A stretch of DNA of 64,000 nt from an uncultured Anaerolineae bacterium (GTDB lineage Bacteria > Chloroflexota > Anaerolineae > Promineifilales > Promineifilaceae). The notes under the pieces are model-generated. The model was not told the DNA's origin. It saw only the letters and a program-made list of their open reading frames with translations, and made no database searches. Of the stretch, positions 1 through 64,000 are shown piece after piece (within the stretch, counting starts at the first letter, position 1; the number at the start of each line of letters is the position of its first letter). The stretch is taken from NCBI GenBank assembly GCA_905479495.1, contig CAJQMR010000043.1, positions 2,979 to 66,978 on the forward strand. Direction: 5' to 3'. The position numbers were made by a program, and so were the translations under genes.

Positions 1-581
1 CTGTCCACTTGAAGCTGTTTGCGCGCTTCTTCCACCACCTGCCAATTTTCTAGCAGATTGGTGTAATTGGTGATCATTGCCCGAAAATCAACCTCTTCCT
101 CGGAATCAATGCCATCTTTTGTCACATCATTGTTGAGGCGATCCAACACGGTAGCGGCCGTCAGCTGGGTTGAGAGCCAAATTTCTTGATCAGCTGTTAA
201 CAAGGGCACTTGCCCAATTTCTTTGAGATAAGTATGAACCGGATCGTCTTCTACCGTACCGGTGAGGTAGGAAGTCCCTTCCTCTTTGTCGTCGTCGTCG
301 TCCAGATTGGTAAGCAGGTTGGAAGATTCACCAAAATCATCCAGCGTTTCACCATTTTCTGAGACGATACGAATATTCATCTTTTGCAGGCGAGCATAAA
401 GGCGCTCTGCCTGTTCTTCATCCGCCGAAGCCAGCAAAGCCTGGACGTCTGCTTCGTTAATCTCACGAGAGCGGCGCGCCTTCTTTACCAAAGCTTCAAT
501 ATCAATAACTTCAGCTTCGTCTTCGCTGTCATCGTCTTCGATATTTTCGTCGAAATCGTTGTCTAGTTCAGATAAATCCAT
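1..581 (-). CDS. rpoD: RNA polymerase primary sigma factor (RpoD/SigA), N-terminal part; gene runs off the left edge
   Basis: Absent from the ORF track because it is truncated. My translation from the ATG at 581 reads MDLSELDNDFDENIEDDDSEDEAEVIDIEALVKKARR...DDPVHTYLKEIGQVPLLTADQEIWLS. That is an acidic region 1.1 followed by the conserved sigma-70 region 1.2 motif. It lies directly downstream of dnaG, as in the classical dnaG-rpoD operon. Confidence 0.85.
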   Translation of the reverse strand, partial: MDLSELDNDFDENIEDDDSEDEAEVIDIEALVKKARRSREINEADVQALLASADEEQAERLYARLQKMNIRIVSENGETLDDFGESSNLLTNLDDDDDKEEGTSYLTGTVEDDPVHTYLKEIGQVPLLTADQEIWLSTQLTAATVLDRLNNDVTKDGIDSEEEVDFRAMITNYTNLLENWQVVEEARKQLQVD

Positions 582-695
582 CTTATATTTTCCTGACCTG
601 AATGAGGAGTTTCCAAGGGCTATTATTTTCTACTTCAGAAAAGTGTTCACGAGTTGAACAATGTTTACTCACTGCGTTTTGCTACATTGGAATTT

Positions 696-2675
696 TTAGA
701 AACGGCCGTTTAAAGCATCTTCTGCGCGGCGGCGGCTGGTAGCCGACATTGAATCTCTGGCTTTGTTGAGCTGTAAGACAGCCAAGGGCAGCTCACGTAG
801 CTGCTGCTGGTAAATTGCCAGGGTTTCCATATCATTTTCCGCTTGGGCCTCATGAAGCAGATGATTCACCTCACTAAGCAGCTGCCTGACCTTGGCTAAA
901 CGCCAATCTAACACGGATAAAACAAGGGTGTCGGCAATACGCTCAAGCTCCGTTTCTGGTGATTGGGGTAATGTCAGCAAGAACTTCAACCGATCCTGAA
1001 GCGTCTGCTCTAGACTATCCCACAATTCATCAATCGTGACAACCGAGGACGAGGCGATCAACTGGTACATTTGTCGCATGATGGCCCGATCTTCGGCCAA
1101 CAAAAAATCTTCGTCCGCTACCTGCGGCTGACCACATTCCCCCAGTTTCTGATTCACACGTAAAATCACCTGCGGGAAGCGCATGCAATGATGCAAAAAA
1201 TCAGACTGGCGCATATCGGTGGCCAGCGGATTCATGCTGGTTTGCCCTTTCCTGGGCACCGTGGCCCAACCGACGTGGCCTTTTGGCTGTGCGGGCTTGG
1301 TCGCCTGGCTTATTTTGGCGGCCTGATGGGGCTTCACTGGCAGGCGAATTTGGCGCAGCGCTCGTTCATCAATTCTTAAGGCGTGGGCCAGCTGCTGCCA
1401 ATAATGGTCGCGTTCGATAGGCTCCTGAATGTCCTTGATGAGCGGTAAGACTTGTTGGGCAACGGCCGTTTTGGCCTTGGCATCATTCATATCCAACCCT
1501 TGCGTCGCCACATCAATCACATAGGCGACCACTGGTTTGGCCTGAGCCACCAGCTTCGTCCACGCTTCCGGGCTTTCCTGAATGATGTTGTCCGGGTCTT
1601 TGCCATCCGGCATGGTGATCACCCGAATGTCTGCCTGGAGCCGGCCCTCTTGCTGCACTAAACCGTGCGCGTCAAACTTCACATCCACTTCTCGGTCTAG
1701 CGTTTCGCGAGCCACCTGCAAGCTGCGCAGAGTGGCGTTTTGCCCGGCCGCATCCGCATCCAGTGCCAGGACAAACTGCTTGGTGTACCGCTTTAGCAAG
1801 CGTAACTGCTGCTCCGTCAGCGCTGTGCCCATCTGGGCCACCACATTGCGGAAACCGGCCTGCCAGGCCTGCATCACGTCCATGTACCCTTCCACAATCA
1901 CCGCCTGCCGCGCTTCACGGATGGCTCGTTTGGCCCCGTCCAGCCCATAAAGCAGGTGACTTTTGTCGAACAGAGCGGTCTGGGGCGAGTTGAGGTATTT
2001 GGGGATACCGTCTTTTTCCAGTGTGCGTGCGCCGAAACCCACGATACGGCCGTCTACATCTCGAATTGGTATCATCAGCCGGTTACGAAAACGATCGTAC
2101 TTGCTGCCCTTGTCCACATTTTCCGTCAGCAGCCCCGCCGCCAGCAGTTCCTGATCGCTGTATCCTTGCATATTAAAATGGGAACGGAAATCATCCCAGG
2201 AATCCAGGGCAAAACCGAGGACAAAATGCTCAATTGTTTCTTCATTGAGGCTGCGCCGGGCCACATATTGCCGGGCCACTTCTCCCTGAGGCGCATACAA
2301 AAAGAGCTGGTGAAAATAATCGGCGGCGGCTTGCAGCAGGCCCGCCTGTTTGTTGTGGGCAGCGCGCTTCTCTTTATCGACCGGCGTCTGTTCTTCCAGC
2401 GTCACCCCGGCCCGCTGCGCCATATTTTTCAGCGCTTCTTTAAATTCCCAGCCTTCCTTCTTCATCACAAAGGAGAAAAGGTCACCGCCTTCGGCGCAGG
2501 CGCCAAAGCAGCGCCAGGTTTGCGTTTCGGGAAAAACAAAAAAGGCAGGGGTGCGCGTGTTTTGGTGGAAGGGGCAAAAGCCAGCGTAATTCCGCCCTGA
2601 GCGGCGCAACGACACGCTTTCAGAGACGATATCGACAAGATCGAGGCGGCTTTTAATATCTTCGGTAACAGTCAT
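696..2675 (-). CDS. dnaG: DNA primase DnaG
   Basis: 659 aa. CHC2 zinc finger CPFHQNTRTPAFFVFPETQTWRCFGAC, a TOPRIM region (EGYMDV ... LDADAAG) and a C-terminal helicase-interaction-like domain. Confidence 0.95.
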   Translation of the reverse strand: MTVTEDIKSRLDLVDIVSESVSLRRSGRNYAGFCPFHQNTRTPAFFVFPETQTWRCFGACAEGGDLFSFVMKKEGWEFKEALKNMAQRAGVTLEEQTPVDKEKRAAHNKQAGLLQAAADYFHQLFLYAPQGEVARQYVARRSLNEETIEHFVLGFALDSWDDFRSHFNMQGYSDQELLAAGLLTENVDKGSKYDRFRNRLMIPIRDVDGRIVGFGARTLEKDGIPKYLNSPQTALFDKSHLLYGLDGAKRAIREARQAVIVEGYMDVMQAWQAGFRNVVAQMGTALTEQQLRLLKRYTKQFVLALDADAAGQNATLRSLQVARETLDREVDVKFDAHGLVQQEGRLQADIRVITMPDGKDPDNIIQESPEAWTKLVAQAKPVVAYVIDVATQGLDMNDAKAKTAVAQQVLPLIKDIQEPIERDHYWQQLAHALRIDERALRQIRLPVKPHQAAKISQATKPAQPKGHVGWATVPRKGQTSMNPLATDMRQSDFLHHCMRFPQVILRVNQKLGECGQPQVADEDFLLAEDRAIMRQMYQLIASSSVVTIDELWDSLEQTLQDRLKFLLTLPQSPETELERIADTLVLSVLDWRLAKVRQLLSEVNHLLHEAQAENDMETLAIYQQQLRELPLAVLQLNKARDSMSATSRRRAEDALNGRF

Positions 2676-2712
2676 GTGGCCTTAAACAAAGCTTAGTCGG
2701 ACAACTGGGCAA

Positions 2713-2742
2713 ATTATACCGTAGACCTTACAAATGTTCTAA
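2713..2742 (-). promoter_or_regulatory. Candidate sigma-70 promoter of dnaG (TTAGAA-N18-TATAAT on the minus strand)
   Basis: Sequence match only. The -10 TATAAT is the reverse complement of 2713-2718 and the -35 TTAGAA that of 2737-2742. It sits 40-65 nt upstream of the dnaG ATG. Confidence 0.3.
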
Positions 2743-2790
2743 ACAGTGGTGGGGGAACGGCCGTCATTTTTACCATAATCTAACAAAGGG

Positions 2791-2826
2791 AAATGAAAAG
2801 AGGCACCCTGCTGCACAGGATGCCTC
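2791..2826 (-). terminator. Intrinsic terminator after the DUF4397 gene
   Basis: GAGGCACCCTG / CAGGATGCCTC stem with one mismatch and a 5-nt loop, followed on the minus strand by CTTTTCATTTC. Confidence 0.6.
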
Positions 2827-4666: not shown

Positions 4667-5698
4667 TCAGTTGATGATGCTGCCTAGCAGCACAATGTCA
4701 CCGGTGCGCTGCACGCTGCCGCCTTCTGGCTCAATAGAAACGCCAACGGCATCAAAGGATTGCAGCGGTTCAGGGGAATGAACCAGCAGCACCCCCTCTC
4801 CTTGCGTATCCACGCGGAAGGTTTCGGCCGTTTCGTGTTCCGTGCCACGAATGAGCAGCACCTGATAGACAGAATCTTGTGGCAGTGAGGGCATGCCATC
4901 TACAATGAGCAGCGCCGTATTCGACACGGGATCGATCACCAGTTGCGCCGATGCCTCCGGCTGATCTTCGGTGCCTGGCAGCGTAACAGAGTAAACGGCC
5001 GAAGAATCAAAAGGCTGGTTGGCCACGATTTTGGATATTTCCGCTTCTAGATTGGCACTGTATGTTTCCAGCTCGGCTAAATCAGCAGATGCCTGAGCTA
5101 AGTCGGTTTGCAGGCTGTTGTTGGTGGCGATGAGATTGGCGTTGTTTTGGGCCAGGTCGTCAATTTGTTGGTCAAGCGCTTGATTGGCAGCTTGCAGTTC
5201 GGCCACACGGGCAGTGAGCGTGAGGTTTTCGCTAGACAGGGCAGCAAAATCGGTGCGCAAGCTGCTGTTGTCGGCCGCCATCTGCTGCACATTCTGGTTT
5301 AGATTTTTTACCTGACTGTTAAGCGACAGCCCCCAAATGAGGAGCAGTACGGCCGTTGCCAAACTTACGGCCGTTACCAGCGGTGTACTAAAGAAAGTGC
5401 GAATTTGATCCCAGAGGGTGGGTTGATTGGATGGGGTGGATACGGCCGTTCGCTTTACCGGTTTAGCCTGTGCCGCCAAATCTGCTTCTACGCGGGCAAA
5501 CAGGGCCGCTTCCGCCTCTGGCGATGGTGTGACTGGCGGTGCGGTGTAAGGCAGCAGCGCCGCCGCCGCGTACGCCTCTTCCAGCAAGGCCACGGCTTGC
5601 GGATTTTCCGCAAGGTATGCCTCAACTTCGGCTTCTTCTTTTGACGACAGCCCACCTAAAACATAAACTGCGAGCAGTTCCTCAATTTGCTCGTTCAT
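4667..5698 (-). CDS. Anti-sigma factor, RskA-like (N-terminal sigma-binding helix, TM segment, coiled coil, C-terminal RskA domain)
   Basis: ORF 4667..5710. I prefer the ATG at 5698 (MNEQIEELLAVYVLGGL), which has GAGGA 5 nt upstream. The C-terminus VYQVLLIRG...DAVGVSIEPEGGSVQRTGDIVLLG resembles the anti-sigma-K RskA domain. It starts 1 nt after the ECF sigma stop. Confidence 0.8.
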   Translation of the reverse strand: MNEQIEELLAVYVLGGLSSKEEAEVEAYLAENPQAVALLEEAYAAAALLPYTAPPVTPSPEAEAALFARVEADLAAQAKPVKRTAVSTPSNQPTLWDQIRTFFSTPLVTAVSLATAVLLLIWGLSLNSQVKNLNQNVQQMAADNSSLRTDFAALSSENLTLTARVAELQAANQALDQQIDDLAQNNANLIATNNSLQTDLAQASADLAELETYSANLEAEISKIVANQPFDSSAVYSVTLPGTEDQPEASAQLVIDPVSNTALLIVDGMPSLPQDSVYQVLLIRGTEHETAETFRVDTQGEGVLLVHSPEPLQSFDAVGVSIEPEGGSVQRTGDIVLLGSIIN

Positions 5699-6370: not shown

Positions 6371-6387
6371 CAATTTATTCAGTTGGA

Positions 6388-6531
6388 CTAGAAACCTTCA
6401 AGCTCAGAGAGATCGGCCAAACCAGTGGTTAAGGCAGCGATGTGTTGCAGCAGGGCCAGGCGGTTGTGGCGTACGGCCGTATCCTCATCCATCAACAAAA
6501 ATTGGGGGATGGCTGGATTTAGGTACTCACG
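6388..6531 (-). pseudogene. Displaced 3'-terminal fragment of glycyl-tRNA synthetase (second copy of the last ~45 codons of glyQS)
   Basis: The minus-strand reading ...[46 protein letters not shown] compares with the functional C-terminus ...[50 protein letters not shown]. By manual alignment the last 108 nt are about 84 percent identical. There is an in-frame stop upstream at 6532-6534. Confidence 0.7.
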
Positions 6532-6542
6532 TTATGACCTTA

Positions 6543-6890
6543 CTAGTGGTTTAACCAGTTAACCAAATTTGCTTTAATTTGCAGCACTCTACTGGCATCA
6601 ACTTCACCAATTGAGCCAAGCAATAGTGAGACGTCAACAACTGCCAGACGGCCAACACGAATAACGCTGCTGCTCTTTAAGCCTGATAGAGGAAAATCAG
6701 GATCATCAGGAGTGATGATATTATCAAACCCTTCAATATGGTGGCGAGATTGAGAGGAAATCATACAAATCAACCAATCTTCAAAAGAACCTGGCAACTT
6801 GCCAATGATTAAAGCTGGTCGAAGTTTCCCACGACGTAAATCGGTTTGAGGAAATCGAAAAAGAACAATTTGTCCAGCATGGACCATCAA
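6543..6890 (-). CDS. Type II toxin, PemK/MazF family
   Basis: 115 aa with the family-typical N-terminus GQIVLFRFPQTDLRRGKLRPALII. It overlaps the upstream antitoxin gene by 4 nt. Confidence 0.75.
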   Translation of the reverse strand: MMVHAGQIVLFRFPQTDLRRGKLRPALIIGKLPGSFEDWLICMISSQSRHHIEGFDNIITPDDPDFPLSGLKSSSVIRVGRLAVVDVSLLLGSIGEVDASRVLQIKANLVNWLNH

Positions 6891-7120
6891 AATGTTTCCT
6901 TCAGGTCGCCCAGCGTATAAGGTTCTTCCTCATCTTCCATGCCACGCATTGCCATTGCCAAAGACAAGTTTGACCAGCTCAGATTGTCAACATCTTCAAG
7001 CGCTTCCTGTGGAATAGACGCGCTTTTTGACAACAAAAATTCAACAAAGTCCAGAACTTGTGTTTGCATCGATTCAGGGAGAATCAGTACACGCTGCTGA
7101 ATTTTTTCTATCACAGTCAT
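6887..7120 (-). CDS. Antitoxin, DUF2281-like
   Basis: 77 aa. IEKIQQRVLILPESMQTQVLDFVEFLLSK is typical of DUF2281 antitoxins. It is translationally coupled to the MazF-like gene. Confidence 0.6.
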   Translation of the reverse strand: MTVIEKIQQRVLILPESMQTQVLDFVEFLLSKSASIPQEALEDVDNLSWSNLSLAMAMRGMEDEEEPYTLGDLKETF

Positions 7121-7211
7121 CGTTCACCTCCGTCAAGGCATCATCAAAAAACTGCTCACATCTAAAGTATAACAGATTGTTTCTGACGATAAACGGCCGT
7201 TTCCACCTCAA

Positions 7212-10187
<2,976 letters not shown>

Positions 10188-10357: not shown

Positions 10358-11143
10358 TTACTCAGCGGGAGGCAGCAGGAGGGCCGCTTCCTGGCGGAGG
10401 CGGTGGAGGAATTCAACGGATTTGAGGTTGCGTTCCAGGACGTAGGTGATGTAGAAGTGCATCACGTTTTCCAGCTCGGTATGGACAGCACGCTTGAGGC
10501 GCAGGTTGTGGACGGTATCCCACGGCCGTGTTTGCAGGTAGCGTAGAACTTTGACGGAAACGGCCGTAATCGCCACAGCCCGCCTATCTTCCGTTCGACA
10601 GTTAGGACATAATACCCCACCCAACTCCCCGCTAAAAAATTGGTCCTGCTCCTCAATCGCTTCACCGCAGGCCACACAGTGGAACAACTGTGGCCGAAAA
10701 CCAGCTAATCCCAACAAACGCAGTTCGTAAAAGCGGGCCACCAGCAGCACATCTTCATGGGTGGTCAGCCAACCGAGAGCATCGGCCAACAGCTGGTAGA
10801 TGCCACTGTGTTTGTCTTCTTCGACTGTGAAGCGATCCAGCAGCTCCACCAGGTAGGCGGCGTAGGTGCTCAGAATGAGATCGTCGCGCAGGGCGGTGTA
10901 TGGCTGCACCATTTCCGCCTGGGTGAGGATGGCAATGTCGCGCCCGCTGGCAAAGAGGAAATTGGAGCGCATGAACTGCTCCACATGGCCCGTCTTGCGA
11001 CTCTGCGGCTTGCGTGCGCCCTTGGCAATTGCCTTGATCTTGCCAAAGTCGCGGCTGTAGAGAGTGAGCAGGCGGTCAGCTTCGCCAAAGTCGGTGCGAC
11101 GCAAAACAATTGCTTCGCTGCGGAAGGTACGTTCTCGGGCCAT
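10358..11143 (-). CDS. recO: DNA repair protein RecO
   Basis: 261 aa. N-terminal OB fold (EAIVLRRTDFGEADRLLTLYSRDFGKIKAIAKGARK) and a zinc motif CVACGE...CPNC. Confidence 0.9.
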   Translation of the reverse strand: MARERTFRSEAIVLRRTDFGEADRLLTLYSRDFGKIKAIAKGARKPQSRKTGHVEQFMRSNFLFASGRDIAILTQAEMVQPYTALRDDLILSTYAAYLVELLDRFTVEEDKHSGIYQLLADALGWLTTHEDVLLVARFYELRLLGLAGFRPQLFHCVACGEAIEEQDQFFSGELGGVLCPNCRTEDRRAVAITAVSVKVLRYLQTRPWDTVHNLRLKRAVHTELENVMHFYITYVLERNLKSVEFLHRLRQEAALLLPPAE

Positions 11144-16679: not shown

Positions 16680-16686
16680 CTACCTA

Positions 16687-16758: not shown

Positions 16759-16817
16759 AAGACGGGCAAATGTTAGCACATTGGCAGGGCGATGGCAAAC
16801 AAGATTGCCCCGGCCAT

Positions 16818-26578: not shown

Positions 26579-26611
26579 CTTGTAACACAAATTTTTTTGC
26601 CAGCTAACAGC

Positions 26612-33709: not shown

Positions 33710-33720
33710 CAATGACATAT

Positions 33721-35868: not shown

Positions 35869-35888
35869 TTTATTTTCTTGTGGGGTTG

Positions 35889-52768: not shown

Positions 52769-52840
52769 GCCTCTATTATGCCGTGCCGAGGCGGGCACGC
52801 CAAAAGAGACTTGGCGGGTAACGGCCGTCCCGCAATTAGG

Positions 52841-53614: not shown

Positions 53615-54536
53615 TCAATTCTCCAGTTTGGCGTGCAGGGCTGGTGCGCCGTCGCAGCAAAATAAAGTAGAAAATAATGGCCATCACCCAAAAAGAGACT
53701 AGGGCATAAACGGCATTCAACTCTGTGACCAAGAAAATCGATTCGGTTTGCAAAGCAGAGTTGACGTAGTTGGCAAACAGCGCCGAGTAAAGATTGTTGG
53801 CCGCGTGGGCACCAATGGCTAACTCGGCCGAATTGTCGCGCAGGGTGATGAAGGCAAAAAAAGCACCGATGCTCAGGTAAAACAGGGGCAGCAAGATGGC
53901 GCTGGCGGCCAATTCAGGATTGCCCAAATGGGGAATCATAAACAAAATGCCATTGACCAACGCCAGGACCCAAAAATTACGGCTTAGGTGACCGCTGGCT
54001 TGCAGCAGGTAGCCACGAAACAGCAGCTCTTCGGCGGTGGTTTGCATAGGGGTGAGCAGCAGCACCGCCAGGGCAAAAATAAAAAAGCGGCCAGGATTAA
54101 AAACAAAGGTGTAGATGTCTGGCGTGAGCAAATATTCTACGGCGCTGGCTAAAGTGACCAGCAGCAGCCAGACGCCAAAGCCCTGCCCTATGCGCCGCCA
54201 GTTGAGCTGTTTGGCGGGGGTGATAATGGAACGAAACGGCCGTCCATGCACAAATCGCACCGTCACAAATACACCCAAAATCAACAGGCCAAAGCTCAGA
54301 TTCAGCACGATATAGTTAAAAATTGGATCGACGCCGCTAAAAAAGCCGGTTTCCATGTTTACGGCCGTTTCTGGATTGCCATCAATCATCACCCACACAA
54401 TTGGCAGCAACACAAACACAGAACCCAAAACCAACCAGAAAAACAAAATCAAAATAAAGCCAAAAAAATAACGGACCCATTCAGTCTGGCCCGCATAAAC
54501 CTGATCTAGAAAAGAATTTTTTATCTCTTTTTCCAT
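53598..54536 (-). CDS. CPBP-family intramembrane glutamic endopeptidase (second, diverged copy)
   Basis: 312 aa with motifs AEELLFRGY, MIPHLGN and GAHAANN. It overlaps the downstream copy by 17 nt. Confidence 0.8.
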   Translation of the reverse strand: MEKEIKNSFLDQVYAGQTEWVRYFFGFILILFFWLVLGSVFVLLPIVWVMIDGNPETAVNMETGFFSGVDPIFNYIVLNLSFGLLILGVFVTVRFVHGRPFRSIITPAKQLNWRRIGQGFGVWLLLVTLASAVEYLLTPDIYTFVFNPGRFFIFALAVLLLTPMQTTAEELLFRGYLLQASGHLSRNFWVLALVNGILFMIPHLGNPELAASAILLPLFYLSIGAFFAFITLRDNSAELAIGAHAANNLYSALFANYVNSALQTESIFLVTELNAVYALVSFWVMAIIFYFILLRRRTSPARQTGELIDGGN

Positions 54537-54681: not shown

Positions 54682-56016
54682 CTAATCTTTATCAAGTTTA
54701 TCTTGAAGACGATTGAGCCGATGTTCCAACTCGGCACGGACGGGATGGTGCTGACCGCGCCTGCCCCAGCTGGCCACCAAGCTTAGCGCCTGTTCGGTCC
54801 AAAAGATTGCCTGGGATAGTTCTTGTGTTTGCCATTCGTAATATTTGGCCAGCTCCACATGGGCGGCCACATCGTCCAGGCTGGTGGCGGCAATTTGCTG
54901 CCAGAGGGGGAGGGCTTCTGTGTAACGGCCGTTTCGCTTCAGCAACAAGCCCAACCGGTGCAAATTGGCATGATACAGCTCCAGCGGCAAATCGCCCTGT
55001 GCCGCCAGCCGCAGATTTTGCTCCGCTGCCTCACTGAGGCCCAAATCCGCCTGCCATTTGCCCAGGCTAAACAGGTCGATGGGATGGTCGGCAAGGTCTG
55101 GTTGGCTGAGCAGCCTGCTCACCCGCGCCGCCAACGTCACCATCGACACCATGTCAATTTGGTTGTGGTAAAAGACGCGCACCAGCTCACGGGCATCGCC
55201 GCTGCGCAAATAGTGATTGTACAGGCTGGGGATAAGCCAGCCGGGCACATCTTCCTGGCTGCGCCGCAGTCCCAGCAGGCTGCCTTCGAGTGAACCGAGG
55301 GCACAGGAGCCAAGCCGGTGCCGCCACAGCCGCCGCGCCGGATGCAGCAAATCCAGATGCGGACGGTCACGCAGGTCAGTGGGCATCCGGTTCATAATAA
55401 AGCGGCCTTCCAGCAGGGGGACGTCAAAGGAACGGCCGTTAAAGGTCACCAATCCCGCTTTTTCCGCCAGCAGCTCATCGAGCAGCAGCAGCAGAGCTGG
55501 TTCATCGCCATGGTCGCGCAAAAAATATTGGCGCACAACAAAACGATCTTCCCCCTGACTGCCTGGCTCAAAAAAACCGACGCCCACCATGAAGGCCAGC
55601 GTGCCCGCGCCAGCCAGACCGGTTGTTTCTGTATCCAAAAAGAGAAAATCGCGGAAGTTGTGCTGGGCCAGCCGCTCATCCTGCACAAACGGCGCGGCAG
55701 CAGCCGGACTGAAGTCCAGCAGGTCAGCCAGCCGGTCATCGCCGTGCTGGTAATCCAGGGTGTAGACGTGATCCAGCACAAAGCATTCACCGTCGGCGGT
55801 AGCGACGATTTCGCCGCCGGGCAGCAAGGTTTCTAAGGGCTGGATGTCGTCGTCATCGGGGAAATTGGTGCGAGATGGGGTGGGGAACGGCCGTACCAAA
55901 TCTTCATCCACCGGCGGGGCAGGCTTGAGCTTGCGCGGCGGCTTGAGCTGCCCCGCTCCGCGCACCACGCCCAAACGGCGCAGCTTCTTTTGTAGATCTT
56001 CGTTCCGGTCGGCCAT
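54682..56016 (-). CDS. RNase H-like (DEDD) exonuclease with a C-terminal TPR domain, YprB/MrfB-like
   Basis: 444 aa. The exonuclease motif LFLDTETTGLAGAGTLAFMVGVGFF ... LVTFNGRSFDVPLL is followed by TPR-like helices. Confidence 0.7.
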   Translation of the reverse strand: MADRNEDLQKKLRRLGVVRGAGQLKPPRKLKPAPPVDEDLVRPFPTPSRTNFPDDDDIQPLETLLPGGEIVATADGECFVLDHVYTLDYQHGDDRLADLLDFSPAAAAPFVQDERLAQHNFRDFLFLDTETTGLAGAGTLAFMVGVGFFEPGSQGEDRFVVRQYFLRDHGDEPALLLLLDELLAEKAGLVTFNGRSFDVPLLEGRFIMNRMPTDLRDRPHLDLLHPARRLWRHRLGSCALGSLEGSLLGLRRSQEDVPGWLIPSLYNHYLRSGDARELVRVFYHNQIDMVSMVTLAARVSRLLSQPDLADHPIDLFSLGKWQADLGLSEAAEQNLRLAAQGDLPLELYHANLHRLGLLLKRNGRYTEALPLWQQIAATSLDDVAAHVELAKYYEWQTQELSQAIFWTEQALSLVASWGRRGQHHPVRAELEHRLNRLQDKLDKD

Positions 56017-56986: not shown

Positions 56987-58192
56987 ATGGCTCAAATAAG
57001 TTTACACTCGACTGATAAATCTCAAGTTGTGGCCGCAAAAAGTGAAAAGGCTGCTCGGCTGTTCTACATTGACCACTTACGCGTTGCGCTCATGATCTTA
57101 GTGGTGCTGCACCATGTGGCGCTGGTCTACGGGGCCAGCCTGGAAGGGTATTATTACGTAGAACCCCCATTTACCTCTCCCCTGGCGTTTAAGGCGCTGC
57201 TGATTTTTGCCCTGGTGAATCAGGCCTGGTTTATGGGCGCTTTTTTCTTGTTGTCAGGCTATTTCACGCCAGGTTCATTCGACCGGAAGGGATTGGGCGC
57301 TTTTTTGAAGGATCGGCTGTTGCGTTTAGGCATTCCGCTGGTTGTTTTCTACTTCGTTCTTAGCCCAATTTCCTTCATCGGTTTCTGGCTGATGCCCTCG
57401 GTACTGACCGGAATTACCGAGCCGCTGACCTGGCAAATCTTCTGGCGAGCCTATCCTGACCTGATCGGTTTAGGCCCACTGTGGTTTGTAGCCATGCTGC
57501 TCATCTTTAGCTTTGGCTATGCCATCTGGCGGTTGGTGGCTGGGAATCAGCCAGCACGCCAATCGGCCATGCCTGGCTACCTGGCTGTCGGCATTTTCAT
57601 TCTGGTGTTGGCCCTGGCCAGCACCCTGATGCGCATGGTGATTCCGCTGGGCGAGAGCTGGCACCAGTTCCCCACCCTGGCTTACCTGCCACAGTATCTC
57701 AGCTTCTTTGTGTTGGGGGCAATTGCCTCGCGCAAGGGATGGCTGAAATCACTGTCTGGCACGATGGGTTTTGTGGGGTTTGTGGTGGCGGCAGTTACGG
57801 CCGTCTTCCTTTTCTCCCTCGCCTTTAGTGGCCAGATGTTCTCGCTGGAGTTGACGGAGGCCTTGGACAACGCGATGGGGAACGGGCATTGGCAATCGGC
57901 CATCTACGCGCTTTGGGATTCTGCGTTTGCCGTCGGTCTAACTTTGGGCTTGATTACGCTGTTTCGTCGCTTTGTGAATAGTCGGAATGGATTCGGCCGT
58001 TTCCTGTCGCAACATAGCTACACCGTCTACATTATCCATATTCCTATCGTCGTTTTTGTGGCCCATGCGCTGCGGAACATCGAACTAGAGAGCCTGCAAA
58101 AGTTTGGTTTGGCGTCGATCATCATTGTCCCAATCTGCTTCATTGCGGCTTATCTGGTGCGCAAAATCCCCTTCGCCTCGAAGATTTTGTAG
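56987..58192 (+). CDS. Acyltransferase family 3 membrane protein
   Basis: 401 aa. RLFYIDHLRVALMILVVLHH plus about 10 TM segments. Confidence 0.85.
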   Translation: MAQISLHSTDKSQVVAAKSEKAARLFYIDHLRVALMILVVLHHVALVYGASLEGYYYVEPPFTSPLAFKALLIFALVNQAWFMGAFFLLSGYFTPGSFDRKGLGAFLKDRLLRLGIPLVVFYFVLSPISFIGFWLMPSVLTGITEPLTWQIFWRAYPDLIGLGPLWFVAMLLIFSFGYAIWRLVAGNQPARQSAMPGYLAVGIFILVLALASTLMRMVIPLGESWHQFPTLAYLPQYLSFFVLGAIASRKGWLKSLSGTMGFVGFVVAAVTAVFLFSLAFSGQMFSLELTEALDNAMGNGHWQSAIYALWDSAFAVGLTLGLITLFRRFVNSRNGFGRFLSQHSYTVYIIHIPIVVFVAHALRNIELESLQKFGLASIIIVPICFIAAYLVRKIPFASKIL

Positions 58193-58653: not shown

Positions 58654-59561
58654 AGATTACTGATAGTCCATTCACAAATAACGATACAGAATACAATCTG
58701 ATCAAAGAACTCTTGCTGGAAATTGAAAACCATCCTGATATGGATAACCGCTGGGACCCTGGCAGCATGGACTGGTGGCGCTACAACTATCATGCTGAAA
58801 AGGGAGTAGATTTCTTTCAGGCCAATGCCCATTATTGGAAAACTGAAACAGATCAGGTTGTGGGATTGTTCATCTCTGAATACGGTCAAGATGATTTTTT
58901 CATCGTGGTACATCCGAATTTCTGGGCACTGTTCTCTGAAATATTGAAATGGGGACTTGAATTTTGGGCACGAGGAAAGAGTAAAATCAGCACGGCCGTT
59001 TACACTTATGACCAACAAAAGATCGCGTGGTTGATGGACGCCAGCTTTTATGAGGATGGTCACGAGGCCAACGTCAGAACTTACAGGCTACGGCACTATG
59101 ATTTTTCCTATGACCTCAAGCCGGATTTCAAATTATTGACTTTTTCCGAATATGGCAATTACGAGAGCCGGGTCAAATTAGTTCACAATGCCTTTAACAA
59201 TCCCGCCTATTCTGAAGCTCGCTTACGTTCACTTCAGAGCTCCCCAGGCTATCAAGCGGAACTGGATTTGGTGATTGTGAATCACCAGGGAAAGTGCATC
59301 GCCTACTGCATGGGATGGGTAGAAGAAAATAATCCAAAGTCAGGTTACATCGAGCCGATGGGCGTCCATTCAGATTACAGAAGAAATGGCCTGGGGACAG
59401 CCCTGGCAAAAGAGTGCTTCAAACGTCTTGATAATCTCGGAGTTGAAAGTGTAACGATTGCCTCCCATGCCGAACCAAATGTCTCCAATTTCCTGTATGA
59501 ATCTTTGATCCCAACAAGCATAAAACGGGTGTATAGATTCTCCCTAAACCTTGATGATTGA
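58650..59561 (+). CDS. GNAT-family N-acetyltransferase
   Basis: 303 aa. The C-terminal GNAT core is IEPMGVHSDYRRNGLGTALAKECFKRL. It overlaps the upstream gene by 4 nt. Confidence 0.75.
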   Translation: MKITDSPFTNNDTEYNLIKELLLEIENHPDMDNRWDPGSMDWWRYNYHAEKGVDFFQANAHYWKTETDQVVGLFISEYGQDDFFIVVHPNFWALFSEILKWGLEFWARGKSKISTAVYTYDQQKIAWLMDASFYEDGHEANVRTYRLRHYDFSYDLKPDFKLLTFSEYGNYESRVKLVHNAFNNPAYSEARLRSLQSSPGYQAELDLVIVNHQGKCIAYCMGWVEENNPKSGYIEPMGVHSDYRRNGLGTALAKECFKRLDNLGVESVTIASHAEPNVSNFLYESLIPTSIKRVYRFSLNLDD

Positions 59562-59759: not shown

Positions 59760-60674
59760 ATGCGCTCCTTGTTAGAAAATGAGAAAAGACGTCAGATAGC
59801 AGGCTGGATTGCGGTGGTTTTTTCCACGGCCGTAACCAGCTTTTGGGCGTTTTGGGGCATTATTGAGAATTTTCACGAAGGCTGGTATTACGACTCCTGG
59901 TTGTCGAATGTCGGCTTGATGCTCGTCCAATATCTTGGCCCGATGCTCATCTTTATGGCCGTCACGCTAATAGCAATCGTTTGGCCGAGATTTGGCGGCG
60001 GACTCCACCTAATCCTGGCCCTGCTGGCTGTTGGTTTTTTTAACGCTTTCTCCAATGCCGCTACTTTTTTGCTCATTTTGCCCCTGGCGGGGTTAGGGGT
60101 GATGTATTGGTACAGCCGTCCTCAACCACGTAAATTAGCCCTCTCCCTGATTATTGGCCTGCCGCTGCTCACCCTCATCATCTCCGGCATAGAACCCGTC
60201 ATTCGCGTGTCCCAACGCATCAATGATGGCAACCTACAGGCGCGCACTGTGTCAGGAAACGGGGTGACGCTCATCTGGGCGCCGGATGGACCCGGCTGGC
60301 CCCGCACAGGGACAAACTGGTACGAGGCACAGGAAGTGTGCCAACACCTCACAGAAGATGGCCTGACGCTGGCCCCTGAACCACAATCAATTTGGCGGCT
60401 GCCTACCGTAGCGGAAGCGGTGCGCTCTATGAGCCTGCACGGCCAAAATAGCGGTGGCGTCTGGGATGCAGCCAGGGCCGAGGCCACCTACCAGGCCACC
60501 CCGGATAAAGAGTCACCCTTGTGGAACGTACATTCCCAGGTGATTTACTGGTGGACAGCAACAGAAGTGGATGAAGCGCACGCTTATATCATTGTCTACG
60601 ATGGGAAGGTATGGGCCAGGTCAAAACAGTTCAGCCCGGCTTATTTGGGGTTTCGCTGTGTCAGACCCCCATAA
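59760..60674 (+). CDS. Membrane protein with a C-terminal DUF1566 (Lcl C-terminal-like) domain
   Basis: 304 aa with four N-terminal TM segments. The C-terminus has WRLPTVAEA ... YWWTATEVDEAHAYIIVYDGKVW ... FRCVR. Confidence 0.65.
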   Translation: MRSLLENEKRRQIAGWIAVVFSTAVTSFWAFWGIIENFHEGWYYDSWLSNVGLMLVQYLGPMLIFMAVTLIAIVWPRFGGGLHLILALLAVGFFNAFSNAATFLLILPLAGLGVMYWYSRPQPRKLALSLIIGLPLLTLIISGIEPVIRVSQRINDGNLQARTVSGNGVTLIWAPDGPGWPRTGTNWYEAQEVCQHLTEDGLTLAPEPQSIWRLPTVAEAVRSMSLHGQNSGGVWDAARAEATYQATPDKESPLWNVHSQVIYWWTATEVDEAHAYIIVYDGKVWARSKQFSPAYLGFRCVRPP

Positions 60675-60713: not shown

Positions 60714-63449
60714 ATGTCTGGCGACCTGCTGCAAACGAAATTGTATGTGCCGCGGTTACGGCCGTCTCTCGTCCCCCGTCTACGTTTAAAAGAACGGTTA
60801 AATCAAGGTCTCCAACTGGGGCACAAATTAACCCTCATCTCAGCCCCGGCCGGGTTTGGCAAAACAACGTTGGTAAGCGATTGGATTCAAGCAATGAGTG
60901 AGGTCACGCCGCCGTTTGCTACCGCCTGGCTTTCGCTGGATGAAGGCGACAATGACCTGAACAGCTTCTTAATCTACTTCATCGCCGCCATACAAACGGT
61001 AGAACCTGACTTTGGATTAGACCCACTGGCTGCACTGCAATCATCTGGAGCGACCAATATTGAAGCAGTTCTGATGGTCCTGCTCAATGAGATCGCTGAT
61101 CTTTCCCAAACCCTGGTTCTCGTTTTAGATGATTATCACGTAATCGAAAATCAATTAATTGATAAAGCACTCACATTTTTACTTGATCACTCGCCTGCGA
61201 CGTTGCACTTAGTCATCACCACGCGCATCGATCCCGCCTTGCCTTTAGCCCGCCTGCGTGGTCGGGGGCAATTGACAGATCTTCGTGTTGCCGATCTGCG
61301 CTTCACCAATGAAGAGGCCACTACATTTCTCAAACAAATGATGCATCTCGAAATCTCAGCAGAAAATATCGCCGCGTTGGGCGCTCGTACCGAGGGCTGG
61401 ATTACAGGATTGCAACTAGCCGCCCTTTCTCTGCAAGAAAGAGACGCAGAATATGTCACCCGTTTCATCCAATCTTTTACCGGCATTCATCATCACATCC
61501 TCGATTATTTGGTCGAAGAAGTTCTGCAACAACAACCGCCAAGATTACATTCTTTTATGCTGCAAACATCAATATTGACGCGCCTGACCGGTTCTTTGTG
61601 CGAAGCCGTCTGTGATTTTGAAAACGACAGCCCTACTCACAGCGACGGACACACATTATTGAACCGACTCGCAAAATCCAACCTGTTCATTGTGCCGCTG
61701 GATGATGAACGGCGTTGGTATCGCTATCATCACCTATTTGCCGATCTGTTGCGCTTTCGCTTGCAGCAAGAACAGGCCAACATGATCCCTGAACTTCATT
61801 GTCGCGCCAGCAAATGGCATGAAGAACACGGGTTCATTGACCAAGCAATTCGCCATGCTATAGCGGCGGATGATCTTGAACAGGCAGCACGACTGGTTGC
61901 AGAACACAGCTTCCCGGCAAACGAGCGGGGTGAGGTGAGTACGGTGCGGCGATGGTTCGAATTGCTGCCGGACGAAAGAGTCCGTTCGGACCCCTCATTA
62001 TCTGTCGACTATGCTTGGACTCTATTCCTCAGTAGTCAGATTGGCGCTGTTGAGGAACGCCTGAACGATGCAGAAGCTTTGCTTAGCAGGCAAACGACAC
62101 CCATCAACAGTAAAAAAGTCACTGAACTATCTTGCCAGATAAACACACTACGCGCGATTCTCTATGGTATTCAGGGAAAACCGATGCGCAGCACTGAAGT
62201 AGCTCAGCAAGTGCTAAGGATCCTACCAGACGATCGTCGTTCCGAGCGAGGGATTCTCCTCTTAACACTCGCCGTTAACTTCAGAGATCTCGGAGACATA
62301 GCGCAAGCCAGCCAGTCATACGCCGATGCTGTCACACTGCTCCTTGCAGCCGAAAACATAATGGCTGCTATTATGGCCGTTGAACAGTTGGTTCGTCTAT
62401 TGGTGATGCAAGGGAAGCTTGTGCAAGCAGTCGAAGTATGCCAGGAGATGCTCGATGCGTCTGCTGAGTTCAGCGCATCGGAACAACTGCGAGCGCTCAG
62501 TTCAGATATGGCGCGAGCGAATATGAGCCATGTACTCTATGAGCGAAACGAGTTAGCTGATGCTGAAGTATACATGCGACGGGGAATCAAACAAACCAAA
62601 CGAGGGGGCTTCTTACAATCGCTGATAAGTGGACAAATGCTATTGGCACGTATTCTGCAAGCACGGGACGATGCAAACGGTGCAAACAAGATGTTGCAAG
62701 CTGCGATTAATAGCACTCAAATGGATCTCCAGCCAATGTATCAGGCAGAGCTGACAGCGTGCCAGGTGCAGTTGTGGCTAGCACAAGAAGAGCTTGATAC
62801 GGCATCTCGCTGGGCGCAGGAAAGCAATCTGAGCGCCGAGATCGAATTCAACCTTCAAAATGAGTATGAACATATCTCGCTGGCGCGGGTGCTAGTTGCG
62901 CAAGGACGAGCCTCATCAGATGGGGTAATGCTGATCAGAGCACTTGGTTTAGTCGAACGACTCGCCCTATCAGCAGAATCAGCAGGGCGAATGGGGCATC
63001 TGATAGATCTTCTGATACTTCAGGCGTTGGCCTTGGATGCACAAGGAGATCTCAATCAGGCGCTGTCTTCCCTTGAGCGGGCGCTTGAGTTGGCCGAACC
63101 GCAGGGATTTGTACGCATCTTTCTAGATAACGGCAGCCCCATCATTCGCCTACTCAAGGAAGCAACCAGGCGCGACATTGCTGCTGAATATGCGATCAAA
63201 TTGCTTACCCAAATCGATACGGACTCGCAGTCTGACACACCTTCGTCCATACTCATAGACCCCCTTTCTGACCGTGAATTGGAAGTCCTTCACCTGATGG
63301 CACAAGACCTATCTTACAGAGAAATAGCAAACCAAATTTTGGTTAGCCTAAATACTGTACGTACCCACGTAAAAAACATTTACAGTAAGCTTATGGTTCA
63401 CAAGCGATCCGAGGCTGTTGCCAAAGCCAGAGAACTAAACCTCTTATAA
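60714..63449 (+). CDS. Large ATP-binding LuxR-family regulator (LAL/MalT-like)
   Basis: 911 aa. Walker A SAPAGFGKTT, TPR-like middle region and C-terminal LuxR HTH (LSDRELEVLHLMAQDLSYREIANQILVSLNTVRTHVKNIYSKL). Confidence 0.9.
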   Translation: MSGDLLQTKLYVPRLRPSLVPRLRLKERLNQGLQLGHKLTLISAPAGFGKTTLVSDWIQAMSEVTPPFATAWLSLDEGDNDLNSFLIYFIAAIQTVEPDFGLDPLAALQSSGATNIEAVLMVLLNEIADLSQTLVLVLDDYHVIENQLIDKALTFLLDHSPATLHLVITTRIDPALPLARLRGRGQLTDLRVADLRFTNEEATTFLKQMMHLEISAENIAALGARTEGWITGLQLAALSLQERDAEYVTRFIQSFTGIHHHILDYLVEEVLQQQPPRLHSFMLQTSILTRLTGSLCEAVCDFENDSPTHSDGHTLLNRLAKSNLFIVPLDDERRWYRYHHLFADLLRFRLQQEQANMIPELHCRASKWHEEHGFIDQAIRHAIAADDLEQAARLVAEHSFPANERGEVSTVRRWFELLPDERVRSDPSLSVDYAWTLFLSSQIGAVEERLNDAEALLSRQTTPINSKKVTELSCQINTLRAILYGIQGKPMRSTEVAQQVLRILPDDRRSERGILLLTLAVNFRDLGDIAQASQSYADAVTLLLAAENIMAAIMAVEQLVRLLVMQGKLVQAVEVCQEMLDASAEFSASEQLRALSSDMARANMSHVLYERNELADAEVYMRRGIKQTKRGGFLQSLISGQMLLARILQARDDANGANKMLQAAINSTQMDLQPMYQAELTACQVQLWLAQEELDTASRWAQESNLSAEIEFNLQNEYEHISLARVLVAQGRASSDGVMLIRALGLVERLALSAESAGRMGHLIDLLILQALALDAQGDLNQALSSLERALELAEPQGFVRIFLDNGSPIIRLLKEATRRDIAAEYAIKLLTQIDTDSQSDTPSSILIDPLSDRELEVLHLMAQDLSYREIANQILVSLNTVRTHVKNIYSKLMVHKRSEAVAKARELNLL

Positions 63450-63459
63450 CTTAACCCCC

Positions 63460-63523
63460 AATCACATAACTCTCCTCCAGCAATCACATCTTTTTCTCCT
63501 CAAGATCACATTCATATGTGATT
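63460..63523. promoter_or_regulatory. Three direct AATCACAT boxes at exact 22-bp spacing plus one inverted copy
   Basis: Direct boxes at 63460-63467, 63482-63489 and 63504-63511 (GATCACAT). The inverted ATGTGATT is at 63516-63523 and forms a palindrome with box 3. Confidence 0.45.
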
Positions 63524-63581
63524 ATTTTCCGATCCACGGCCGTTATCCTGTAATCATAGTTTTAAAAAGAGGTTGACAGGA

Positions 63582-63836
63582 ATGGCAGATGCAGAACACA
63601 ACTTGAATCCAGATAGCCCGGTAATCTACCAGATTACAGTACAAGGATTTCTGGACAAGAGCCGAGCCGATTGGTTCGACGGGATGGCCATTGAGCCTCA
63701 AGTCGATGCAGACGGAAGGAGTGTCACCAAACTGACCGGCACGGTGGTCGATCAAGCCGCGCTGCACGGGTTACTGCGCAGACTGTACGATCTAGGTCTG
63801 TCACTACTGTCGATTAAACGCATCGAACTTGATTAA
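63582..63836 (+). CDS. Small hypothetical protein downstream of the LAL regulator
   Basis: ORF 63573..63836, which the track starts at TTG. I prefer the ATG at 63582, with AGAGG upstream. The C-terminus is TGTVVDQAALHGLLRRLYDLGLSLLSIKR. Confidence 0.5.
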   Translation: MADAEHNLNPDSPVIYQITVQGFLDKSRADWFDGMAIEPQVDADGRSVTKLTGTVVDQAALHGLLRRLYDLGLSLLSIKRIELD

Positions 63837-63953
63837 CCGGATGCCGGAAATATTGAGCAATTGTGTGCCAGAACGATCTCAACCCTTTCTAAGTGTGAAT
63901 GCTGCTCATGGCTCATTATTCGACATCGAATTAGATAAAAGGAATGAAATCTG

Positions 63954-64000
63954 ATGTTGAAAAAAATCTTAACCTTCATCCAGCACAAAACCAGCTGGCT
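63954..64000 (+). CDS. Start of an unidentified gene running off the right edge
   Basis: ATG at 63954 with AAGGAA upstream, reading MLKKILTFIQHKTSW... Too short to call. Confidence 0.25.
   Translation, partial: MLKKILTFIQHKTSW

Follow-up and report, generated by a model that had tools for sequence, protein, structure and literature searches.

A highly iterated palindrome with a CGGCCG core and its lineage dialects in an Anaerolineae clade of the Chloroflexota

The DNA analysed here comprises 64,000 bases from an uncultured Anaerolineae bacterium (assembly GCA_905479495.1, contig CAJQMR010000043.1, positions 2,979 to 66,978; hereafter the window, meaning the whole of that stretch). It has a G+C content of 51.65% and contains exactly 100 copies of the palindromic octamer ACGGCCGT, which corresponds to 1563 per Mb. 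We consider it nearly certain that this word is a highly iterated palindrome (HIP) of the type known in cyanobacteria as HIP1, and that it has been written by substitution into the genes, the spacers and the phage and mobile DNA of its lineage. The explanation as a whole, in which a HIP-type word is joined to an account based on methylation and repair, is favoured with modest confidence; the methylation-repair mechanism taken by itself is offered as a tentative proposal, in which we place rather less trust.

The enrichment of ACGGCCGT is real. Dinucleotide-preserving shuffles of the window (n = 100) contained the word 0.88 times on average (standard deviation 0.99, maximum 5), giving an observed/expected ratio (O/E) of about 110, and the Markov expectation was 0.83 at order 1, 1.7 at order 2 and 3.6 at order 3; expectations of orders 4-6 rise only by training on sub-words of ACGGCCGT itself and are contaminated in that way. 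An earlier note on this DNA, made by eye, had put the number at about 100 against a chance expectation of around one per 64 kb, and the exact count bears it out. All but one of the positions listed there were exact, the copy given as 5348-5355 lying in fact at 5349-5356. ACGGCCGT ranked first among the 8-mers of the window and the runners-up were its own overlapping neighbours; the best unrelated 8-mer had 21 copies and the next palindromic one, CTGGCCAG, had 7. The HIP1 word itself, GCGATCGC, occurred 0 times in the window, in agreement with the note's remark that it is not enriched; with a Chloroflexota host besides, HIP1 proper was ruled out. The inner hexamer CGGCCG was found 142 times, 100 of them flanked by A..T. 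As a separate observation, TGGCCA was the second commonest palindromic hexamer of the window (54) and GGCC the commonest palindromic tetramer (524), above what ACGGCCGT contributes to it.

Variants altered in one terminal base alone (six kinds) numbered 27 in the window, close to the 25 or so estimated before, and the 18 kinds of inner one-off variant came to 16 copies in all, 0-3 apiece. When one-offs were pooled over 156 kb, the outer ones were about 3-fold enriched (70 observed vs 25 expected), those at positions 2/7 and 3/6 were about 2-fold depleted (9 vs 17-21), and those at positions 4/5 were at expectation (10 vs 9). Beyond the octamer the flanks are weakly and symmetrically biased, as G-n-A-[ACGGCCGT]-T-n-C. 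The 5′ A was present in 60 copies and the 3′ T in 55, the 10-mer AACGGCCGTT in 33 of the 100; since the product of the two frequencies, 0.33, equals the observed share with both flanks, the half-site flanks are independent. The same 33 copies correct the impression that about half of them sat in the 10-mer. A perfect 16-mer, GGAAACGGCCGTTTCC, had also been noted at 32778-32793, and it is there, only it is the sole perfect one and not one of several; ten copies fit the looser GNAACGGCCGTTNC. The sequence around the copies is unique beyond about 4 bp, with weak preferences only to +/-4 bp, and 90% of the copies are genic, by which a longer dispersed repeat, a repetitive extragenic palindromic (REP) element or a miniature inverted-repeat transposable element (MITE) was ruled out.

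The force that maintains ACGGCCGT acts on DNA rather than on proteins, as had been argued from its presence in genes in all three phases and in intergenic DNA. We called 57 open reading frames (ORFs), covering 89% of the window, and 90 copies were coding and 10 intergenic, with equal density (1.58 vs 1.44 per kb). By translation of the ORFs, 52 coding copies are read as TAV (ACG GCC GTn), 23 as [NDY]GR (xAC GGC CGT) and 15 as xRPx. When synonymous codons were shuffled within each gene, the copies expected in coding sequence fell to 10.6 +/- 2.8 (maximum 19) vs 91 observed, and shuffling the order of codons left 1.6 +/- 1.3; the count is thus far above the codon-aware null as well as the dinucleotide-aware one. 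A preference for certain codons or peptides was ruled out by both shuffles together with the intergenic copies. The tripeptide TAV was found 55 times vs 7.8 expected from amino-acid frequencies, a 7-fold excess, while its five other permutations occurred 3-10 times each, and ACGGCCGTN spells 52 of the 55; likewise NGR occurred 13 times vs 2.9 expected and 11 of the 13 are written AACGGCCGT.

It follows from the TAV inflation that ACGGCCGT has altered the encoded proteins. In GlyQS, the fused glycyl-tRNA synthetase of the window, the residues encoded by the motif have a conservation of 0.40-0.54 vs 0.66 elsewhere, measured over 18 outgroups free of the motif, and varied outgroup residues (REQ, IAQ, ERV) become TAV at the motif sites. 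It was also possible to see differences between genes: the motif is scarce in rpoD and the nuo operon (L083, 17036-22976; L086, 15316-22976; here and below, L numbers are our labels for loci), nuo of L086 having 1 copy in 5.6 kb, and GlyQS reaches 2.7 per kb, GlyQS and DnaG together spanning 2-2.7 per kb. Motif density seems to fall as the constraint on the protein rises. An insertion sequence region of L083 (DDE_3, 43% G+C) had 0 copies in 1.5 kb, a length of low power.

Comparison of orthologues indicates that the sites are kept. Syntenic loci were taken from four close genomes (L083, L084/L085, L086), and scanning the GTDB species genomes with a GlyQS profile supplied the loci of 80 more. 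In the close relatives ACGGCCGT occurs 25-35 times per 23 kb. In a protein-guided codon alignment 26 of 30 window sites were exact in L083, vs 15-23% for control 8-mers, at an overall nucleotide identity of 79% and a third-position identity of 56%; sites and inner codons are therefore conserved well above background. A comparison of orthologues had been proposed in the earlier note. Exact conservation was 26/30 in L084, 10/12 in L086 and 3/13 in L005, and in L009, at 70% identity, 13 of 22 sites were exact while control 8-mers gave 9-14%. The six codons that compose the motif (ACG, GCC, GGC, CGT, CGG, CCG) were kept vs L083 at 0.90 inside it and 0.44 outside (p = 2e-12), and vs L009 at 0.68 and 0.40; Xu et al. 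used this constituent-codon test to argue for selection on HIP1 (PMC5861425). The same sites were found in independent ENA, NCBI and JGI assemblies.

The intergenic site at 2757 is retained in L084, and 3′ of GlyQS three of four genomes have a copy of their own at a differing offset, from which we take it that spacer sites turn over. Codon alignments of orthologues with and without a site are collinear, with no indels at motif sites save in one variable linker, and the motif arises by point substitution, not by insertion. Gains that need several substitutions had been considered as a sign of patch conversion, and this was dropped: 2-5 differences per 8-mer do not clearly exceed the number expected at 14-21% divergence.

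The whole GlyQS clade is enriched for words based on CGGCCG, with flanks that differ by lineage. The dialects are CGGCCG, ACGGCCGT, WCGGCCGW, AACGGCCGTT, CACGGCCGTG, CCCGGCCGGG and CGCGGCCGCG, the last of which contains the NotI site; all are perfect palindromes, and the part that is invariant across lineages is exactly CGGCCG. The form ACGGCCGT is that of the window's own group and also of L009 (55 in 23 kb) and L213 (34 in 23 kb). L005 uses WCGGCCGW (22 in 17 kb), and L215 the strict 10-mer AACGGCCGTT, which accounts for 20 of its 22 copies of ACGGCCGT. L214 prefers CACGGCCGTG (12 exact and 24 and 21 half-extended, out of 46). L029 has 55 copies of CCGGCCGG, about 73% of them extended to CCCGGCCGGG, and L004 has 36 of GCGGCCGC, the NotI site, mostly as CGCGGCCGCG, and zero of ACGGCCGT. 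L029 belongs to JACKCB01, L004 to JAGNBF01 and L215 to GCA_002748985.1. At the other end stands L216 (a JGI 3300062799 contig, GlyQS 69% identical), where CGGCCG shows no flank preference: it was the commonest 6-mer, 111 in 23 kb vs 15.4 +/- 3.9 under a first-order model, a 7-fold excess, and all 16 combinations of outer bases occur, a "core-only" form. At 6499-7020 of that locus is a gene for a small HNH endonuclease, and nothing ties it to the motif. L031 (Promineifilum) and L041 have a milder excess of CGGCCG, also free of flanks. Densities in the relatives were 500-2400 per Mb, and the bare 6-mer reached 4.8 per kb.

Each dialect occurs in all three phases and brings its own tripeptides (PAG, AAA, [PTS]GR or [RSG]GR). 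Window sites were seldom found with the flanks swapped in another lineage (L029 has CCGGCCGG at 2 of 16 and L004 has GCGGCCGC at 0 of 9), which indicates that the dialect sites are largely independent gains. At one conserved x-G-R column of GlyQS, ACGGCCGT in the A..T lineages corresponds to CCGGCCGG in L029, and in the alpha-beta linker of the fused protein (alignment columns 909-927; about 9270-9300 in the window) nearly every lineage has its own dialect word, at slightly varying offsets, L004 having two overlapping GCGGCCGC. Neighbour-joining trees of GlyQS place the carriers together in a single clade, and the outgroups, at 59% identity or less, are without enrichment.

Several other Anaerolineae avoid the core or its inner tetramer. 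GGCC was found once vs 100-180 expected in both L018 and L019, 10 times vs 126 in L021 and 20 times vs 76 in L042; CGGCCG was found 0 times vs 7-13 in L011 and L012, and once in L023 vs about 12 by base composition, or 4.0 under a 4th-order Markov model. This avoidance suggests active restriction of HaeIII or EagI type in the avoiding lineages, and enzymes recognising GGCC or CGGCCG evidently circulate in the class, as far as these sequences can tell. Two other palindromic octamers, each over-represented locally in an unrelated locus, were seen in passing: AAAATTTT, 25 times in 23 kb of L047 (a Selenomonadaceae metagenome-assembled genome, MAG, 48% G+C), and GCGCGCGC, 13 times in 13 kb of L018 (an Anaerolineae MAG).

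The motif is written into bona fide phage genes. A scan of IMG/VR for two copies of ACGGCCGT at most 30 nt apart gave at least 120 loci, and among the matches listed 18 loci hold six or more copies at a density of no less than 1 per kb; in the seven richest, base composition would give 0.07-0.35 copies per locus. The large terminase of L153 was recognised with E = 1.6e-43; L154 codes for a major head protein together with a head protease, and L201 for a tail spike; in L169, with terminase and head protease and a G+C content of 46%, 14 of 15 CGGCCG are ACGGCCGT. Inside the terminase, head and tail genes the motif lies in every phase at 0.6-3.3 per kb. L102 (49 copies) and L177 (20) are the two ends of one 100 kb contig whose genes (ParA, RadC, a P22-type antirepressor, a lytic transglycosylase, an FtsK/SpoIIIE translocase) point to an integrative and conjugative element (ICE) or a plasmid-like element, and with this contig included the range is 0.6-3.7 copies per kb. 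Such carriage argues for a process acting on all resident DNA, and against a role that is purely chromosomal or for uptake only. One further viral locus, L171 (IMGVR_UViG_3300049045_000044), has CGGCCG 71 times in 10.8 kb (O/E 22) and prefers flanks by half-site (ACGGCCGN 35, NCGGCCGT 32, both together 14); it is possibly an intermediate between dialects.

The copies in the window, located by exact search for ACGGCCGT and without strand because the word is a palindrome, are distributed as follows. Those read as TAV (phase 0) in minus-strand genes lie in DnaG (1462-1469), an anti-sigma factor (5349-5356, 5367-5374, 5442-5449), GlyQS (7297-7304, 7573-7580, 8086-8093, 9160-9167, and 9289-9296 in the variable alpha-beta linker), RecO (10560-10567), a protoglobin-ThiS protein (11977-11984), cytidine deaminase (15265-15272), an NTP-transferase (15644-15651, 15695-15702, 16199-16206, 16451-16458), DnaX (18350-18357, 18428-18435), an S8 peptidase (23896-23903, 25294-25301, 26278-26285), a GAF histidine kinase (27303-27310), TsaB (29769-29776, 30258-30265), an ABC ATPase (33312-33319), an NMT1 binding protein (33758-33765), RidA (36710-36717), a FecR-DUF5666 protein (37687-37694, 38101-38108, 38173-38180, 38881-38888, 39361-39368, 39424-39431), a low-molecular-weight phosphatase (47724-47731), a NUDIX protein (51886-51893), PRAI (52716-52723) and a CAAX protease (54361-54368). 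On the plus strand the same reading is found in a MoaD-like protein (12659-12666), a Ser/Thr kinase-AAA-TPR protein (20520-20527, 21522-21529, 22962-22969), a DUF4349 protein (32782-32789, the centre of the perfect 16-mer), DAHP synthase (44199-44206), a VTT/DedA protein (44626-44633), a TetR regulator (46062-46069, 46359-46366), a DUF2867 protein (47186-47193), a GMC oxidoreductase (50150-50157, 51200-51207), an acyltransferase (57797-57804), a GNAT protein (58992-58999) and a hypothetical protein (59826-59833).

In phase 1 the reading NGR is given on the minus strand by DnaG (702-709), GlyQS (7674-7681), the protoglobin-ThiS protein (11361-11368), AFOR (13972-13979), the NTP-transferase (16129-16136), RecR (17106-17113), an epimerase (28596-28603) and an RNaseH-like protein (54925-54932, 55432-55439), and on the plus strand by ThiS (12485-12492) and the Ser/Thr kinase-AAA-TPR protein (19819-19826). 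DGR is found on the minus strand in DnaG (2046-2053), GlyQS (8877-8884, and 9987-9994, where the outgroups also keep DGR), cytidine deaminase (15333-15340), a GNAT protein (29459-29466), TsaE (30583-30590), the NMT1 binding protein (34300-34307) and an ABC permease (35372-35379), and on the plus strand in TetR (46390-46397); YGR is found in the kinase (23119-23126, plus) and in the epimerase (28482-28489) and PRAI (52460-52467), both minus. Phase 2 gives, on the minus strand, LRPY in GlyQS (8678-8685), TRPW in RecO (10522-10529), ERPC in DnaX (19326-19333), LRPS in the ABC ATPase (33475-33482), IRPL in the FecR-DUF5666 protein (37409-37416), KRPL in an RsmF-like rRNA methyltransferase (41555-41562), GRPS in a PALP enzyme (49142-49149), VRPF in PRAI (52150-52157), LRPF and GRPF in the CAAX protease (53344-53351, 54236-54243) and VRPF in the RNaseH-like protein (55887-55894); on the plus strand, RRPY in the kinase (20078-20085), IRPF in the DUF2867 protein (47608-47615), PRPF in the GMC oxidoreductase (50023-50030) and LRPS in a MalT/LuxR regulator (60758-60765). 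The readings NGR at 702, TAV at 1462 and RP at 8678 had been proposed before and our translations agree with them.

Intergenic copies lie in the DUF4397/DnaG spacer (2757-2764, the one conserved in L084), within a relic duplicate of the GlyQS 3′ end (6473-6480), 12 nt beyond the GlyQS stop (7193-7200), between the flavin mononucleotide (FMN) riboswitch and the permease start (35619-35626), upstream of that riboswitch (35953-35960), and at 43091-43098, 43223-43230, 52821-52828 and 63536-63543. The tenth, at 26571-26578, forms an arm of a terminator-like hairpin on the minus strand (26545-26582; arms ACGGCCGUUUCC and GGAAAUAGCCGU, then a U-run) downstream of the histidine-kinase gene, as the earlier reading had it; the folding energy is -19.1 kcal/mol with a z of -4.5, and a simple scanner did not flag it. 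The copy at 35953 is inside the ORF 35636-36028 (130 aa), which is without family match, overlaps the riboswitch from the opposite strand and is probably spurious. The riboswitch (Rfam RF00050, 109 bits; 35711-35871, minus) precedes an operon of ABC permease, NMT1 binding protein and ABC ATPase (32888-35605).

The window is otherwise an ordinary chromosomal region, with DnaG, fused GlyQS, RecO, RecR, YbaB, DnaX, AFOR, TsaB/E, DAHP synthase and others. A tRNA-Gln(TTG) at 16686-16759 (minus), between the NTP-transferase and RecR genes, is without a copy of the motif. Near the end of GlyQS there is a direct duplication of 111 nt of its 3′ end (6387-6497 and 7211-7321, 85% identity), with ACGGCCGTATCCTCATCCAT intact in both duplicates, and between them (6498-7190) lie a MazF-type toxin gene (6543-6890, minus) and a putative antitoxin ORF. 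This cassette is absent from L083, L084 and L086 and resembles an inserted element by which the end of the gene was duplicated or displaced. Among the relatives of GlyQS the nearest, 87-90% identical, belong to MAGs named Anaerolineaceae, Promineifilaceae and Ardenticatenaceae and to 'Candidatus Leptofilum sp.', and the DnaG protein is found unchanged on marine metagenome contigs (SOLA22, ENA). Judged by these sequences, the host lineage is Chloroflexota, Anaerolineae, Promineifilaceae, near 'Ca. Leptofilum'.

Considering that a symmetric, evolving word is found on all types of replicon, a host-encoded and sequence-specific reader would be expected, with two-fold symmetry and a specificity that can shift. 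The natural candidates would be Type II methyltransferases, or proteins derived from restriction-modification (R-M) systems, of the EagI/NotI specificity class; the invariant CGGCCG core and the avoidance of GGCC or CGGCCG in other Anaerolineae lend circumstantial support to a link between restriction or methylation and the motif. In the mechanism that we propose tentatively, the word would be the target of a host enzyme, most likely a solitary cytosine methyltransferase of that class with lineage-specific extended contacts, and the methylated word would be read by a step of DNA repair or strand discrimination. Replication errors that destroy a site would then be reverted and those that create one would tend to stay, which is a ratchet of the type described by Elhai, possibly reinforced by selection for a mark every ~0.4-2 kb. 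The ratchet would reach any DNA that replicates in the cell, hence the carriage by phages, and a shift in the specificity of the enzyme would set a new target and produce dialects. Elhai's ratchet of methylation-directed repair saturates at about one site per repair tract, ~1 kb (PMC4390886), and such a saturation agrees with what was seen in density (0.5-2.4 per kb), site conservation, carriage by phages and dialects. The pooled one-off counts are also compatible with a generalised form of it. The methyltransferase, its coupling to repair and the balance of drive and selection are parts of the mechanism that we infer.

Several points weigh against this mechanism or against the breadth of the reading. 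Pfam scans of 50 of the ~57 called ORFs of the window turned up neither a DNA methyltransferase nor a Vsr or restriction gene, the RsmF-like rRNA enzyme being the only methyltransferase, and no DNA methyltransferase, Vsr-like or MutH-like gene was seen in the window or in any fetched locus. Elhai's rule, by which the methylated C of the core is preceded by a G, holds for the G..C dialect alone and fails for A..T and C..G, leaving a generalised ratchet at best. Transition-type one-offs, the signature of Vsr, are not specifically depleted, in small counts. The distances between copies are near Poisson (coefficient of variation 0.88 vs 0.99 +/- 0.10, P = 0.10) and the biggest gap is ordinary, and an even spacing of the marks was accordingly set aside. 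To our knowledge, methyl-directed mismatch repair is not used by most bacteria beyond the gamma-proteobacteria, and we know of no case in the Chloroflexota. As for the sample, about 20 kb was taken per relative, mostly of the same locus; the viral loci were ascertained on the motif, which biases their densities upward, and some may be prophages; and the tree is a single-protein neighbour-joining tree with no support values, hence provisional. Two further searches were made: regular expressions for 5-methylcytosine (m5C; PCQ/ENV/FxGxG) and N4/N6 ((D/N/S)PP(Y/F)) methyltransferases matched, over all fetched loci, in two motif-poor viral loci only, and an approximate M.HaeIII-like query gave six close relatives among the viral contigs, none linked to the motif.

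A broader form of the proposal, which we hold to be speculative and rather doubtful, is a "genome watermark": a host module of recognition and repair would write its own palindrome of 6-10 bp into every resident replicon, phages included, and its specificity would have been switched repeatedly, from CGGCCG to A..T, W..W, C..G and G..C flanks and from these to the 10-mers.

The chief rival, improbable in our judgement, is that ACGGCCGT is a signal for uptake or kin recognition like the DNA uptake sequence (DUS) or the uptake signal sequence (USS): a competence receptor would prefer the word, recombination would spread it by molecular drive, and drift of the receptor would produce the dialects. 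A density of ~1-2 per kb and lineage dialects on a conserved core are also seen in DUS (PMC3630211), and distorted tripeptide frequencies, with a siting at residues of low conservation and in genes under less constraint, have been described for USS (PMC2817400); besides, HIP1 has recently been tied to methylation-dependent transformation and to pilus and secretion genes (10.64898/2026.06.24.733823), a role in uptake or kin recognition having lately been put forward for HIP1 as well, and type IV pili are encoded in most wastewater Chloroflexota MAGs (PMC10746286). Against this, the word is a perfect palindrome whereas the known uptake signals are asymmetric, no bias towards intergenic DNA or terminators was found (10% of copies in 11% of the DNA), and TAV is inflated 7-fold vs ~2-fold for USS tripeptides. 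In the phage structural genes and the ICE- or plasmid-like element its density is like that of the host or higher, and in Neisseriaceae, by contrast, an atypical DUS content serves to identify mobile elements (PMC7371117). Drive by transformation should spare the DNA of lytic phages. Nor is competence known in the clade.

Very-short-patch repair has been proposed to account for the excess of CCWGG and the deficit of CTAG in E. coli, and a second rival, quite improbable, takes the word as a functionless by-product of such repair, in which a Vsr-like nickase paired with an m5C methyltransferase would turn T:G into C:G in near-sites. It would reach all the DNA of the cell, phages included, and protection from C-to-T decay would yield conserved sites; the core is moreover a classical target of m5C methylation and restriction, and relatives avoid GGCC or CGGCCG. 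This repair, however, drives only the position of the methylated cytosine and cannot alone specify 8-10 bp or a 100-fold enrichment, the effect in E. coli being small, as is generally known. C-to-T and G-to-A one-offs show no specific depletion when set against the remaining kinds, gains by multiple substitution that change amino acids, such as REQ to TAV, occur, and vsr genes were not seen in the window or the fetched loci.

Less probable still, by a little, is that the word is bound by a dimeric protein, nucleoid-associated or chromosome-organising, and would be kept for the architecture of the chromosome as was proposed for HIP1 from a periodicity of 10-90 kb. A palindrome of 8-10 bp with independent half-site flanks would suit a dimer, and sites are conserved as those of HIP1 are (PMC5861425). 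The number of sites stands against it, thousands per genome, far above the generally known families parS, matS, NBS and SBS, as do the full density on phages and mobile elements, the near-random spacing in the window, and the dialects, whose replacement would require thousands of sites to co-evolve with one protein. Finally, trivial or artefactual causes (dispersed repeats or MITEs, preferences for codons or peptides, assembly or adapter contamination) are refuted by the unique flanks, the synonymous null of 10.6 vs 91, the intergenic copies and the independent assemblies from ENA, NCBI and JGI, and we give them practically no weight.

HIP1 has been unsolved for 30 years and has been studied in one phylum and essentially on one core. 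An independent case in a further phylum, on a different core and with seven or more dialects in one clade, makes the search for the reader or writer tractable by comparison, for the responsible protein should co-vary with the dialect, and assignment of phages to hosts by dialect may become possible. That a short DNA word reshapes proteins, with TAV raised 7-fold, bears on annotation, on models of codon use and on selection tests in abundant filamentous bacteria of wastewater and the sea. If a watermark of the kind outlined above is real, HIP words would be general, independent of phylum and driven by a definable enzyme, and the dialects would serve as barcodes of phage host range and as a natural covariation experiment pointing to the writer.

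Among the known systems of short repeated words, Chi and the FtsK-orienting polar sequences are also abundant, but they are asymmetric and strand-skewed, and a palindrome cannot have polarity. REP sequences and bacterial interspersed mosaic elements are abundant and palindromic too, but are 20-40 bp long, extragenic, with conserved flanks and mobilised by RAYT transposases, whereas the copies of ACGGCCGT have unique flanks and 90% of them are genic. Dcm/Vsr resembles what we describe in that repair linked to a methyltransferase shifts oligonucleotide frequencies in all resident DNA; it differs in being orders of magnitude weaker, acting on a single position and leaving a specificity for 8-10 bp unexplained. 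The sites of EagI (CGGCCG) and NotI (GCGGCCGC) are identical to the core and to one dialect, and their specificities are related in the same manner, as a 6-bp core plus outer bases. Genomes with an active restriction enzyme usually avoid its site, in contrast to the hyper-abundance found here; avoidance was found only in the other Anaerolineae, and no R-M gene was identified. With DUS of Neisseriaceae and USS of Pasteurellaceae the word shares a frequency of ~1 per kb, dialects based on a core, inflated tripeptides, a preference for poorly conserved protein positions and conservation of sites between species. Those signals are asymmetric 9-12-mers, atypical in mobile elements, and DUS are often paired as terminators and enriched between genes; ACGGCCGT is unlike them in being a palindrome, in showing no intergenic enrichment and in its abundance in phage and mobile-element DNA.

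The closest likeness is to HIP1, and every testable property by which a HIP is recognised was found here save taxon and sequence. In both, a palindromic octamer ranks first among 8-mers; HIP1 has an O/E of 15-300 and a density of 300-2700 per Mb (PMC4390886), and ACGGCCGT has ~110 and ~1560. Both occur in genes in every frame and in spacers and spread by substitution, their sites and inner codons are conserved above controls, and their one-offs concentrate at positions 1 and 8. Both are extended to palindromic 10-mers and have lineage variants on a 6-bp core that is a classical target of methyltransferases and restriction enzymes; in cyanobacteria the variants of GCGATCGC are TCGATCGA, GGGATCCC and CAGGCCTG, with 10-mers such as GGCGATCGCC. 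The differences are the phylum, Chloroflexota and not Cyanobacteria, and the core, CGGCCG in place of CGATCG, which is without GATC and so has no Dam-type partner. The link of HIP1 to methyltransferases (DmtC, DmtA) is established, whereas for ACGGCCGT it is proposed here. No report of phage or mobile-element carriage of HIP1 was found in the literature searched, and for ACGGCCGT it was observed. A HIP with a CGGCCG core, or any HIP outside the cyanobacteria, the Chloroflexota included, was not found in the searchable full-text literature, an absence that is no proof of novelty, and matches to the bare string were primers. What is new is thus a second phylum, the carriage by phages and mobile elements, and a dialect series running from a bare 6-mer through the NotI-site form to strict 10-mers, with far more dialects in one family-level clade than HIP1 has; the whole looks like an equivalent, outside the cyanobacteria, of their HIP1 puzzle.

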